Shown here: piece after piece, positions 35,501 through 40,079 of the stretch
Layout: the number at the start of each line of letters is the position of its first letter
Numbering within the stretch: the first letter of the stretch is position 1
IMG/VR virus record: IMGVR_UViG_2721755728_000013
Reading direction: 5' to 3' (one strand)
DNA length: 40,079 nucleotides
Origin: a virus
Taxonomy: Duplodnaviria > Heunggongvirae > Uroviricota > Caudoviricetes
Made by a program: the position numbers

Positions 35501-38500
35501 TTCGCGCTGAATAGACGCAAGCTTTGAGTTCAGCTCACCAATAGCCGCATTTACTTCAGCTTGAGTTTTTGCCTCGTTCATTAGTTTTGCAATCTGGGCT
35601 GTTTCACGAATAGCCGTCATTGCTGCCGTTAATTCAGCGATCACATTGAATACTCTTATTGTTGTTGGGGATATCCAGATTAACCGAATCCTTGTTGTTG
35701 GGGAATAACCAGGTCCACCTCGCCTGATGTGGCTAAAAGCAGGCACATAACAGCTAAGTATTTTCAACCAGAGAGAATCCTTAGCGTTGTGGTGAATGCG
35801 GCTCAGCGCACGCGGGTTAAGGTTGAGGCTGACAGTCGACCTTCTGTGGATACCCACCCGCCTGGTGTGCAACCTTCGCCAGGCACCGGGAGGCACCCGG
35901 CACCACAACTTTATGCTGTGTGTAGTCCTGGCGGTACCAGTTTGTACCCTTGCTTCCGGCTGGTACCGTCCTTTTTTGCAAAACAGAGAAGAGCATCACC
36001 GGACGACGGGCTCATAACCCAATCCATCCGGGCGGCTGCCACCGCAGGTGTTCTTCTCTGTTTTGTGGAGAAACCAACCGACCTTGCAGGGTCGATATGA
36101 TGAGGAGCAGCAAAATGGCTAGCGAACGCAGTACTGATGTGCAGGCATTTATCGGGGAGCTGGACGGCGGCGTATTTGAAACCAAAATCGGCGCAGTTCT
36201 CAGTGAGGTCGCTTCCGGTGTGATGAACACGAAAACCAAAGGGAAGGTCTCACTCAATCTGGAAATCGAACCGTTTGATGAGAACCGTGTGAAAATCAAA
36301 CACAAACTCTCATATGTTCGCCCAACTAACCGCGGGAAAATTTCCGAAGAAGACACCACCGAAACGCCGATGTATGTCAATCGCGGTGGTCGCCTGACTA
36401 TTCTGCAGGAAGACCAGGGACAATTACTGACTCTTGCCGGTGAACCTGACGGAAAACTCCGCGCAGCAGGTCGTTAATATCGTTCGTAATAAACTGATTA
36501 TTTATCTCATCACTGAATATCTTTATATAGTGAGGACTTATTATGTCTCAGAACTTAGACGCAACCGCAATTAATCAAATCCATGCCCTTATTTCTGCTC
36601 AGGGTGTTAATGAAATTATCAGTAAGATTGGTGCCGATGCTGTGGCATTGCCTGAGAATTTCCGCATTCATGATCTGGAAAAATTTAATTTAAATCGCTT
36701 CCGTTTCCGTGGTGCACTTTCCACTGCCAGCATCGATGATTTTACCCGTTATTCTAAAGATCTTGCAGATGAAGGCACCCGCTGCTTTATCGATGCCGAT
36801 AATATGCGTGCCGTCAGTGTGCTTAACCTGGGTACTATTGATGAGCCAGGTCACGCAGATAACACTGCCACTCTCAAACTGAAAAAGACAGCACCGTTCT
36901 CTGCTCTGTTGTCTGTTAACGGCGAGCGTAACTCCCAGAAGTCACTGGCAGAATGGATCGAAGACTGGGCCGACTACCTTGTGGGCTTTGATGCTAATGG
37001 TGACGCCATTCAAGCAACAAAAGCGGCTGCGGCAGTCCGTAAAATCACGATTGAAGCAAACCAGACCGCTGATTTTGAAGATAATGACTTCAGCGGCAAA
37101 CGCTCCCTGATGGAGTCTGTCGAAGCGAAGACCAAAGACATTATGCCAGTGGCATTTGAATTTAAATGCGTTCCGTTTGAAGGTCTGAAAGAACGTCCGT
37201 TTAAATTACGCCTCAGCATTATCACTGGCGATCGTCCTGTACTGGTTCTGCGCATTATTCAGCTGGAAGCGGTGCAGGAAGAAATGGCTAACGAATTTCG
37301 TGATCTGCTTGTTGAGAAATTCAAAGACAGCAAAGTAGAAACCTTTATTGGTACTTTCACCGCCTGATTTCATTACTGCAAATGCCCCTGCGGGGGCATT
37401 TATGGAAACGTAATTAACTCAATAATCACCGGATGGTGAGGGCTTCCTTTTACCAGAATTCAGCGCGGTGCAGTGCATATACGTGGAGAACAAAATGTCA
37501 TTTATTAAAACTTTTTCCGGGAAGCATTTTTATTATGACAAGATAAATAAAGACGACATCGATATTAACGATATCGCGGTTTCCCTTTCAAATATCTGTC
37601 GCTTTGCCGGTCATCTTTCGCACTTCTACAGCGTCGCCCAACATGCGGTTCTTTGCAGCCAGCTGGTGCCGCAGGAATTTGCTTTTGAAGCGTTAATGCA
37701 TGATGCAACAGAAGCGTATTGCCAGGACATTCCCGCACCACTGAAACGCCTTCTTCCTGACTATAAACGGATGGAAGAAAAAATAGACGCCGTAATCCGT
37801 GAGAAATACGGGTTACCCCCAGTTATGAGTACACCCGTGAAATATGCCGATCTCATCATGCTGGCAACCGAACGCCGCGATCTCGGGCTTGATGATGGCT
37901 CTTTCTGGCCTGTACTGGAAGGCATCCCGGCAACAGAAATGTTCAACGTGATTCCACTGGCACCGGGTCATGCCTACGGGATGTTTATGGAACGTTTTAA
38001 CGATTTATCGGAGTTACGCAAATGCGCATGAATGTTTTCGAAATGGAAGGGTTTCTTCGCGGGAAATGTGTACCGCGAGATCTGAAAGTGAACGAAACAA
38101 ATGCTGAGTACCTGTTACGTAAATTCGACGCGCTTGAAGCTAAATGTGCGGCACTGGAAAACAAAATAATACCAGTGTCAGCTGAACTGCCACCAGCAAA
38201 TGAAAGTGTTCTGTTATTTGATGCTAATGGAGAAGGCTGGCTGATTGGCTGGCGTTCTCTCTGGTACACCTGGGGACAAAAAGAAACCGGAGAATGGCAG
38301 TGGACATTTCAGGTCGGGGACCTTGAAAACGTCAATATCACTCACTGGGCAGTAATGCCAAAAGCACCGGAGGCTGGAGCATAATGACCACATTTACCAA
38401 TAAAGAACTGATTAAAGAAATCAAAGAACGAATCAGCAGCCTAGAGGTTCGAGACGATATTGAGCGCCGTGCTTATGAAATCGCACTCGTATCTCTGGAA

Positions 38501-40079
38501 GTAGAGCCAGATGAACGCGAAGCCTATGAATTATTCATGGAAAAGCGTTTCGGTGACTTAGTAGATCGTCGGAGAGCAAAAAACGGCGATAACGAATACA
38601 TGGCATGGGATATGACTCTCGGTTGGATCGTCTGGCAGCAACGAGCTGGTATCCATTTTTCAACAATGTCACAGCAAGAGGTGAAATAATGGAGCCATAC
38701 AGCCTCACACTCGATGAGGCCTGTCATTTTCTCAAAATATCCAGACCGACTGCCATTAACTGGATACGCACAGGCCGCCTACAGGCAACACGTAAAGATC
38801 CAACCAAGCCAAAATCTCCTTACCTCACAACACGGCAAGCTTGCATTGCGGCGCTTCAGTCTCCGCTGCATACTGTCCAGGTGAGCGCGGGTGATGGCAT
38901 AACAGAGGAAAGAAAATGTCACTCTTCCGCAGAAATGAAATATGGTATGCCTCGTATTCGCTCCCGGGCGGGAAACGAATTAAGGAATCTCTTGGCACAA
39001 AGGACAAGCGGCAAGCTCAGGAGTTGCACGACAAGCGAAAAGCAGAACTCTGGCGAGTAGAAAAGCTAGGGGATTTACCTGATGTCACTTTTGAAGAGGC
39101 CTGCCTAAGATGGCTTGAGGAAAAAGCTGATAAAAAATCTCTCGATTCAGATAAAAGCCGGATTGAGTTCTGGCTTGAACATTTTGAGGGTATAAGGCTT
39201 AAAGATATCTCGGAGGCAAAGATTTACTCTGCTGTAAGCAGAATGCATAACAGAAAGACGAAAGAAATATGGAAACAGAAAGTTCAGGCCGCCATCAGGA
39301 AAGGTAAAGAACCGCCTGTTTATGAACCAAAGCCAGTATCAACTCAGACAAAGGCAAAGCATCTTGCCATGATAAAGGCCATTCTCCGTGCTGCAGAACG
39401 CGACTGGAAGTGGCTGGAAAAAGCGCCTGTCATCAAGATACCAGCGGTCAGAAACAAGCGAGTCAGATGGCTGGAAAAGGAGGAAGCAAAACGCCTTATT
39501 GATGAGTGCCCCGAACCACTGAAATCTGTCGTCAAGTTTGCGCTGGCAACTGGTCTGAGAAAGTCGAACATCATAAATCTGGAATGGCAACAAATCGACA
39601 TGCAGCGACGAGTTGCCTGGGTGAATCCAGAAGAGAGCAAATCAAACCGCGCCATTGGTGTGGCGCTGAACGATACCGCCTGTAAAGTGTTGCGTGATCA
39701 AATAGGCAAGCATCACAAATGGGTGTTTGTACATACCAAGGCGGCTAAGCGAGCAGATGGAACATCAACGCCTGCGGTCAGGAAGATGCGCATCGACAGC
39801 AAGACATCATGGCTATCAGCTTGTCGTCGTGCAGGAATTGAAGATTTCCGTTTCCATGACCTCAGACACACCTGGGCAAGCTGGCTGATCCAGTCAGGCG
39901 TCCCATTATCTGTGCTTCAGGAAATGGGCGGATGGGAGTCCATAGAAATGGTTCGTAGGTATGCTCACCTTGCGCCTAATCATTTGACAGAGCATGCAAG
40001 GAAAATAGACGACATTTTTGGTGATAATGTCCCAAATATGTCCCACTGTGGAATTATGGAGGATATAAAGAAGGCGTAA

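Follow-up and report, generated by a model that had tools for sequence, protein, structure and literature searches.

The early-left yfdPQRST module of a lambdoid prophage: a known gene cluster, a conserved leader RNA and a possible connection to host replication initiation

Introduction

What occupies the early-left operon of a lambdoid phage that carries neither N nor the recombination genes of lambda, and what might these genes do? The question is raised by a stretch of viral DNA of 40,079 nucleotides (nt) from the IMG/VR database (record IMGVR_UViG_2721755728_000013), referred to throughout as the window, which represents a lambdoid prophage of the DLP12/SfV-like type in an orientation reversed relative to the lambda map. 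An initial annotation of this DNA, made from the sequence alone, placed five genes of a YfdQ/YfdR-like module at 36115-38689, on the early-left side of the genome. As described below, the module is the yfdP-yfdQ-yfdR-yfdS-yfdT cluster also present in the cryptic prophage CPS-53 (KplE1) of Escherichia coli K-12. The cluster is already known and is found in over half of the complete E. coli genomes; the earlier observation is thus correct and is not new. The only new item to emerge from the analysis is a conserved, structured leader RNA situated just upstream of yfdP. Among the functions that can be proposed for the module, an early modulation of host replication initiation through DnaA is the best supported, and we weigh it here against three other explanations.

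The five genes form the yfdPQRST cluster

The initial annotation gave five plus-strand open reading frames (ORFs) of 120, 274, 178, 120 and 101 amino acids (aa) at 36115-38689, and these were recovered with exactly those positions and sizes, each opening with ATG. Profile searches with all five products assigned them to PHROG families 204, 210, 318, 583 and 660 at E values from 1e-30 to 1e-120, which bears out the view of this region as a YfdQ/YfdR-type module. The genes are as follows:

36115-36477, plus strand: yfdP, 120 aa (PHROG 204, 1.2e-49); homologues carry PF27127, the YfdP family of newer Pfam releases
36543-37367, plus strand: yfdQ, 274 aa, DUF2303 (PF10065, 2e-92; PHROG 210)
37495-38031, plus strand: yfdR, 178 aa, HD-domain phosphohydrolase fold (PHROG 318, 5e-110)
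38022-38384, plus strand: yfdS, 120 aa, C-terminal DUF551 (PHROG 583, 3.9e-82)
38384-38689, plus strand: yfdT, 101 aa, no known domain (PHROG 660, 1.4e-30)

A purine-rich, Shine-Dalgarno-like run is evident 5' of yfdP, yfdQ, yfdR and yfdT. YfdQ belongs to DUF2303 over its full length (309.7 bits against PF10065, whose gathering score is 26.6; residues 7-272), and the match of YfdS to DUF551 lies above threshold but is marginal (PF04448, 22.1 bits against a cut-off of 22.0; residues 50-117).

Identities to the K-12 proteins YfdP, YfdQ, YfdR, YfdS and YfdT amount to 118/120, 272/274, 177/178, 119/120 and 100/101 residues, respectively (98-99% at the protein level). Gene content, gene order and gene sizes are all shared with the CPS-53 cluster, whose DNA is 97.8% identical to that of the window over 36096-38745. 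However, the K-12 cluster has been cut off from the immunity region: homology begins only 19 nt before the yfdP ATG, the leader RNA, the small RNA-like gene and pL are all missing, and torI follows in place of the xis-int genes of the P22/SfV type. More broadly, the DNA of 36000-38700 matches 3045 of 5426 complete E. coli genomes, with at least 80% query coverage in 1933 of them and identities of 97.9-100%; in these genomes the RefSeq names are yfdP, YfdQ family protein, yfdR 5'-deoxynucleotidase, phage protein or YfdS family protein, and yfdT. The same order, orf32-orf28 followed by xis and int, exists in Shigella phage SfV, and the module is also carried by SfIV, SfII, mEp460, several Stx2 phages, the PhiR series and Kati. 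Phage SfV shares with the window the arrangement from cI through orf32-28-xis-int, at about 90% identity over 35715-40010 in blastn and 95% over the pieces aligned by megablast, but it differs in the immunity region and the segment between cI and the leader, where it has orf33 in the place of an antisense gene of the window. PhiR49_1 is closer still, at 99.6% identity over 34995-40079. A 226-aa "long YfdP" annotated in phage Kati was put down to faulty annotation, most homologues being about 120-123 aa long.

The five genes do not travel as an indivisible unit. The yfdP-yfdQ pair is conserved and adjacent, next to the cI repressor gene, in Klebsiella and Xenorhabdus prophages, and Vibrio phage VvAW1 likewise has the two genes side by side. 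An IMG/VR scan yielded no loci other than those whose YfdQ is identical or nearly so; in 80 of these viral loci, all sharing an identical YfdQ, the gene patterns were PQRST (33 loci), PQRS (20), PQR (19), PQR-T (5) and PQ (3), and yfdR, yfdS and yfdT are thus progressively more exchangeable. A homologue of YfdQ (window 36543-37367; E 1e-44) has been solved and deposited as PDB entry 9o7m, "YfdQ Protein", with 36 chains; a literature search by entry code, YfdQ and DUF2303 found no publication for it. AlphaFold models of YfdQ and YfdP, as predicted folds, had no informative neighbours in PDB fold libraries covering entries to April 2026 and lacking 9o7m.

A conserved leader RNA precedes yfdP

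Folding and covariation together define a structured element in the DNA that leads into the module:

35968-36074, plus strand: three-way-junction leader RNA, 107 nt

The leader starts within the U-tract of a terminator and ends 40 nt 5' of the yfdP ATG. A 23-nt core of the element was found in 16 species-representative genomes belonging to about ten genera of Enterobacterales, and in 13 of the 16 it stands directly 5' of a yfdP homologue. Another two of the 16 have the core 5' of an RdgC-family gene followed by a yfdR homologue; in both of these, Enterobacter sp. ENT03 (locus coordinates 4981-5916, minus strand; Pfam RdgC, 9e-36) and Phytobacter sp. V91 (locus coordinates 2325-3242, plus strand; 9e-117), the RdgC-family gene takes the slot of yfdP-yfdQ.

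The covariation alignment comprised 16 distinct sequences and 37 base pairs. Standard pairs fill 98.5% of the pair cells, as against 40-56% when the pairing partners are slid; compensatory changes are present in 9 of the 37 pairs, as against three or fewer with slid partners; and the observed covariation was reached in none of 500 shuffles. One arm of the junction carries insertions of variable length. Outside the search core the leader is 75-90% identical between genera, compared with 66-71% for the yfdP and yfdQ coding DNA of the same genomes. A covariance model built for the element scores 116.6 bits on the plus strand of the window vs 37.7 on the minus strand, finds one copy per prophage and places a leader at fixed spacing in all 80 viral yfdQ loci, while the same model finds no copy in lambda, HK022, K-12 CPS-53 or the Xenorhabdus prophage. 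The leader matches no family in Rfam 15, and searching the full text of the literature for its core sequence brought up no paper.

The position of this RNA calls to mind the put sites of HK022 and the N-leader of lambda, in that a structured RNA lies early in the pL transcript, 5' of the first early-left gene, in a phage without N. Unlike the putL/putR pair of HK022, however, the leader of the window is single-copy, and whereas put RNA consists of two adjacent stem-loops, the leader folds as a three-way junction; it is not a put-like pair. A second, putR-like copy had been considered at 33195-33330, where two short words are shared with the leader, and was discarded: the segment is coding sequence, has no fold (z -0.34) and gives no match to the covariance model. 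One may reasonably hypothesize that the leader regulates the early-left operon of these N-less phages in cis. As a new cis-acting element in place of N/nut, it might bring about processive antitermination, be a site of processing, or sense a ligand or protein.

Lambda functions that are absent, and whether the module replaces them

The initial annotation described the module as replacing N, exo, bet and gam, and further listed kil and cIII as missing. At the sensitivity available from tblastn and from Pfam and PHROG scans, the absence of all six genes is upheld. When 17 lambda early-left proteins were compared with all six frames of the window by tblastn, nothing scored better than E 0.11; the best values were 0.28-0.62 for exo, bet and gam and 0.9 for N. 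Every ORF between cI and int is covered by families other than these, the early-left ORFs all fall outside the exo, bet and gam families and their analogues of the Erf, Abc2 or RecET type, and of such functions the scans turned up only RusA, in the nin region; tiny analogues without sequence similarity would escape homology searches of this kind. An N-like gene was also sought among the small ORFs between pL and yfdP, and no N family matched there. One such ORF, lying over the leader hairpin, matches PHROG 33599 at 35972-36100, but because it has no ATG, GTG or TTG start of its own at that place we take it to be the conserved RNA element read as protein.

Replacement in the sense of functional substitution is a different matter, and it is doubtful. 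Of the enterobacterial lambdoid phages in the panel of Zheng, Casjens, Davidson, Amundsen and Smith (Genome Res 2025, PMC12315714), 22% lack a Rec module. LLS, which they take as the type phage, lacks an N homologue, carries an O-like gene as the sole component of its replication module and has yfdP/yfdQ/yfbR-like genes in its early-left operon (PMC12315714). Genes of the yfdP/yfdQ/yfdR type are common in these phages, yet they are neither restricted to nor universal among the Rec-less ones, and since ArgO145 has the cluster together with a complete Rec module of four functions, a hidden recombination role was considered unlikely (PMC12315714).

The window resembles LLS in lacking both a Rec module and N, in its O-only replication module and in its yfdP/yfdQ/yfdR-type genes. 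The O-like initiator (PHROG 391) is encoded at 31929-32870 on the minus strand with PerC directly after it, and family scans of the early genes detected no helicase loader of the P, DnaB or DnaC type in the replication module. Where the window departs from LLS-type phages is in its Chi sites. Six are present in total, against 1.5 expected from shuffles, all of them within the early region at 29-38 kb (29077-38197) and none in the structural arm of 57-60% G+C; four of the six are on the minus strand of the window, which corresponds to the lambda top strand and would be the active orientation when RecBCD enters at the right cos end. Four Chi sites in active orientation compare with typically eight or more in the class. 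These features fit the assignment of the window phage to the described class of lambdoid phages without a Rec module, without N and with an O-like gene only, its Chi content being atypical. The proteins of LLS are only 76-90% identical to those of ST64B.

YfdR retains the HD motif but is not a YfbR equivalog

The initial annotation assigned to the 178-aa protein the HD motifs of a YfdR-type 5'-deoxynucleotidase and left this assignment to depend on a careful alignment. The alignment shows H50, H69-D70 and D119 in place, and H50, H69, D70, E73, D78 and D119 are invariant in 20 YfdR homologues of 65-88% identity. The HD part of the claim therefore stands, whereas equivalence with the 5'-deoxynucleotidase YfbR does not. 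YfdR scores 19.9 bits against NCBIfam NF003009, the YfbR 5'-deoxynucleotidase equivalog model, whose cut-off is 122, and it also remains below the gathering scores of the Pfam HD clan (YfbR-like, 24.3 vs 25.9; HD_3, 17.0 vs 22.5). With YfbR itself (PDB 2paq) the similarity is confined to the motif HDAxE....D.P.P.K over some 40 residues (E 0.12). Homology to the HD superfamily is clear only through the HD protein Atu1052 (PDB 2gz4), with which YfdR aligns over its whole length at 4.5e-17 when a family profile is used. YfbR and Atu1052 thus share with YfdR the metal-binding motif of the HD domain but, unlike YfdR, neither is known to bind DnaA. As for enzymatic activity, the account given in PMC4776307 attributes to K-12 YfdR a deoxynucleoside monophosphate (dNMP) phosphatase activity of lower affinity than that of YfbR (Zimmerman 2008, as cited there).

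What the module may do

The only direct experiments on these genes, performed with proteins 98-99% identical to those of the window, are those of Noguchi and Katayama (2016; PMC4776307). In their study, multicopy yfdQ plus yfdR plus either yfdS or yfdT suppressed over-initiation of replication in hda, dnaAcos and seqA backgrounds, and the same set lowered initiation in wild-type cells, with yfdP being dispensable in the assay (PMC4776307). Purified YfdR bound DnaA in an interaction for which Phe46 in DnaA domain I is important, and competed moderately with DiaA and DnaB; extracts containing YfdQRST inhibited oriC replication in vitro (PMC4776307).

In the mechanism that we propose, the genes would be transcribed after induction, rightwards in the window, from pL or from a nearer promoter and through the terminator and the structured leader RNA. 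YfdR, as an HD-fold protein with weak dNMP phosphatase activity, would bind DnaA domain I at the Phe46 surface that DiaA and DnaB also use and, together with YfdQ and either YfdS or YfdT, would lower initiation at oriC. In its native setting the module would then serve to seize or modulate host replication early on, to the advantage of the phage replicon; yfdP-yfdQ would constitute the conserved core cassette, yfdS and yfdT would serve as exchangeable accessories, and nucleotide hydrolysis by YfdR would be secondary. In its most pointed form, YfdQRST could be a dedicated device for host-replication takeover, aimed at DnaA domain I, in phages without a helicase loader. We count in favour of such a role the O-only replication module, as in LLS, and the modularity of yfdS and yfdT, as well as the fact that the module genes are the first substantial early-left ORFs in E. 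coli, Klebsiella and Xenorhabdus prophages.

We hold early modulation of host replication initiation, extended here from overproduced proteins to the live phage, to be the best-supported mechanism, and we do so tentatively, at a level of confidence that stops somewhat short of even. Several observations weigh against it. The DnaA effects were obtained only with multicopy or overproduced genes, and deletion of yfdQRST from K-12 alters neither initiation nor hydroxyurea resistance (PMC4776307). The gene that was dispensable in the DnaA assay, yfdP, is the most tightly linked partner of yfdQ. The invariant HD catalytic residues suggest that catalysis matters and is not secondary. A comparison with PDB folds gave no informative relative for YfdQ or YfdP, and the link to loader-less replication is an association seen in a few genomes.

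The point about catalysis leads to a second explanation, in which YfdR is mainly an early dNMP or nucleotide phosphohydrolase that reshapes the deoxynucleotide pool, either for phage DNA synthesis or against nucleotide-based defences, and the other four genes are passengers or regulators. The phosphatase activity reported for the K-12 protein agrees with it, as does the invariance of the catalytic residues among homologues, and a precedent is furnished by T5 Dmp, a 5'-deoxynucleotidase unrelated to YfdR that defeats the Kongming defence by removing dAMP (bioRxiv 2024.12.20.629578). Yet similarity between YfdR and T5 Dmp is undetectable (as a candidate homologue, Dmp was rejected at a BLASTP E above 3), and Dmp genes reside mostly in phages that also encode a dNMP kinase (bioRxiv 2024.12.20.629578), of which none was noticed here, the whole window not having been scanned for one. 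PADLOC matched none of its defence or anti-defence families to the five module proteins or the antisense gene, and altering the nucleotide pool leaves unexplained the genetic need for yfdQ and yfdS/yfdT alongside yfdR. We consider this explanation unlikely. The role in counter-defence or in balancing deoxynucleoside triphosphates that the initial annotation had put forward accordingly finds no support from PADLOC or from homology to Dmp, and the experiments point instead to DnaA and oriC.

That YfdP and YfdQ work in the recombination or repair of DNA, for instance through modulation of host RecA or RecBCD, and so stand in functionally for a Rec module, is suggested in part by location: the module fills the red/gam slot of lambda in a prophage that has no Rec module, and in two other genera an RdgC-family gene, with yfdR after it, stands behind the leader RNA in the place of yfdP-yfdQ. 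In Burkholderia phage JC1 and Vibrio phage VvAW1, DUF2303 genes also have RecT/YqaJ or SSB/exonuclease genes in their neighbourhood, PMC4776307 describes a K-12 yfdQ mutant as weakly sensitive to methyl methanesulfonate (MMS), and the 36 chains in the entry for the YfdQ homologue could mean a large oligomer of the kind that annealing proteins form. Set against this are the presence of the cluster beside the complete Rec module of ArgO145 and the fact that not all Rec-less phages have it, on which grounds a hidden recombinase was deemed unlikely (PMC12315714), and the predicted YfdQ model, whose fold does not resemble those of Rad52/Red-beta, RecA, Gam or RdgC. Moreover, with four active-orientation Chi sites where eight or more are typical of the Rec-less class, a picture built on host RecBCD fits less cleanly. 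A recombination role appears to us distinctly improbable. Still less do we favour the idea that these are mainly "moron" genes, conferring stress tolerance on the lysogen and not serving lytic growth. It draws on the hydrogen peroxide sensitivity of K-12 yfdS mutants and the weak sensitivity of yfdQ mutants to MMS and hydrogen peroxide, as these are recounted in PMC4776307 and PMC10834534 (citing Wang 2010 and Rooney 2009), and on the retention of the module in the decayed prophage CPS-53. However, the reported phenotypes are weak, the genes are conserved in the plaque-forming phages SfV, mEp460 and the PhiR series, and a repressor-controlled early operon placed behind a terminator and co-oriented with xis-int suits expression upon induction and not in the lysogen; the chance that this explanation is the right one seems slim.

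Gene spacing and the interval between pL and yfdP

The genes were initially described as tightly coupled, which holds for the distal part of the cluster: yfdR and yfdS overlap by 10 nt, yfdS and yfdT by 1 nt, and yfdT and xis meet in TAATG, after which the reading frames of xis and int also overlap. It does not hold for the proximal part, where gaps of 65 nt and 127 nt separate yfdP from yfdQ and yfdQ from yfdR. The second of these gaps contains a hairpin that was read from the sequence and may act as an attenuator within the operon or affect RNA stability:

37380-37401, plus strand: GC-rich hairpin, AAATGCCCC/GGGGCATTT

Likewise, the placement of the cluster between pL and xis is right as to position, but pL does not adjoin the five genes, lying 1.2 kb before yfdP. 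Because a terminator, an antisense gene, a small RNA-like gene with its own terminator and the structured leader all intervene, the genes are not simply the first template of pL. The elements of this interval, other than the leader itself, are:

34829-34846: cI terminator
34862-34900, plus strand: oL operator repeats, 17-nt ATTTGCNTATCNCGCAA, in common with the cro-cI intergenic region at 34080-34096
35071-35090: bidirectional terminator hairpin, which also ends the antisense gene (35090-35071)
35129-35644, minus strand: antisense gene (PHROG 1244, 7.8e-55), with a C-terminal CxxC...CxxC
35756-35979, plus strand: candidate small RNA (sRNA) resembling STnc100/PasD, of a prophage sRNA family (Rfam RF02076, E 3.4e-6; sub-threshold at 40.3 bits, where the gathering score is 47)
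36079-36094, plus strand: short hairpin, predicted by folding, just 5' of the yfdP Shine-Dalgarno sequence GAGGAG (36103-36108)

The operator repeats place oL and pL probably at about 34862-34925, directly 3' of the cI terminator, the position of the promoter being deduced. Right after the bidirectional terminator, at 35092, is a boxA-like GCTCTTTAACA, which we take to resemble the boxA consensus of rrn and P22; it occurs once in the window, and no boxB was identified with it. The antisense gene lies between two 26-nt inverted repeats, at 35102-35127 and 35656-35681, that are 85% complementary, and the right arm is partly repeated at 35692-35719; this segment could be an inserted or invertible cassette. 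The sRNA candidate ends in a strong intrinsic terminator, with a stem at 35930-35970 and a U-tract (U6) at 35972-35977. It is also present in Kati and SfV, and is not in mEp460 or phiSTEC1575. Four of the six pairs of the short hairpin at 36079-36094 show compensated changes in a Klebsiella prophage.

Prophage context

The genes flanking the early-left region are those of a lambdoid immunity and integration module, in which the repressor gene orients the early-left side:

33215-33766, minus strand: CII-like gene
33759-34019, minus strand: cro
34117-34809, plus strand: cI-type repressor, helix-turn-helix (HTH) plus S24 peptidase (Pfam Peptidase_S24, 6e-19; HTH_3, 1e-11)
38689-39060, plus strand: excisionase of the P22/SfV type (PHROG 2907, 3.3e-45; HTH_17)
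38916-40079, plus strand: IntD-like tyrosine integrase (Phage_integrase, 5.5e-47)

The early-right genes encode the O-like protein, PerC, Dam, a LexA-like protein, RusA, KilA-N, a truncated DUF968 protein and Q. A near-identical prophage in E. coli strain C3 adjoins tRNA-Arg and has lambda-like head and tail genes. Relative to it, the window is missing 470 bp at 29119/29120, which leaves the DUF968 gene truncated (28720-29145), and its tail-tip region (3219-11320) is arranged differently. G+C content is 55-61% in the structural arm and 37-48% in the lysis/nin region.

Concluding remarks

The yfdPQRST genes are among the commonest early gene sets of enterobacterial prophages and are annotated in thousands of genomes. 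Their history runs from their description in SfV in 2002, through the genetics and biochemistry of the K-12 genes in 2016, to their discussion in 2025 as typical of lambdoid phages without Rec or N. Two readings of the region have been developed here, the leader RNA as a possible new cis-regulator and YfdQRST as a possible DnaA-directed takeover device, and we rate these more novel readings as less likely than not. Taken by itself, the leader RNA could help to explain how N-less lambdoid phages run their early-left operon.

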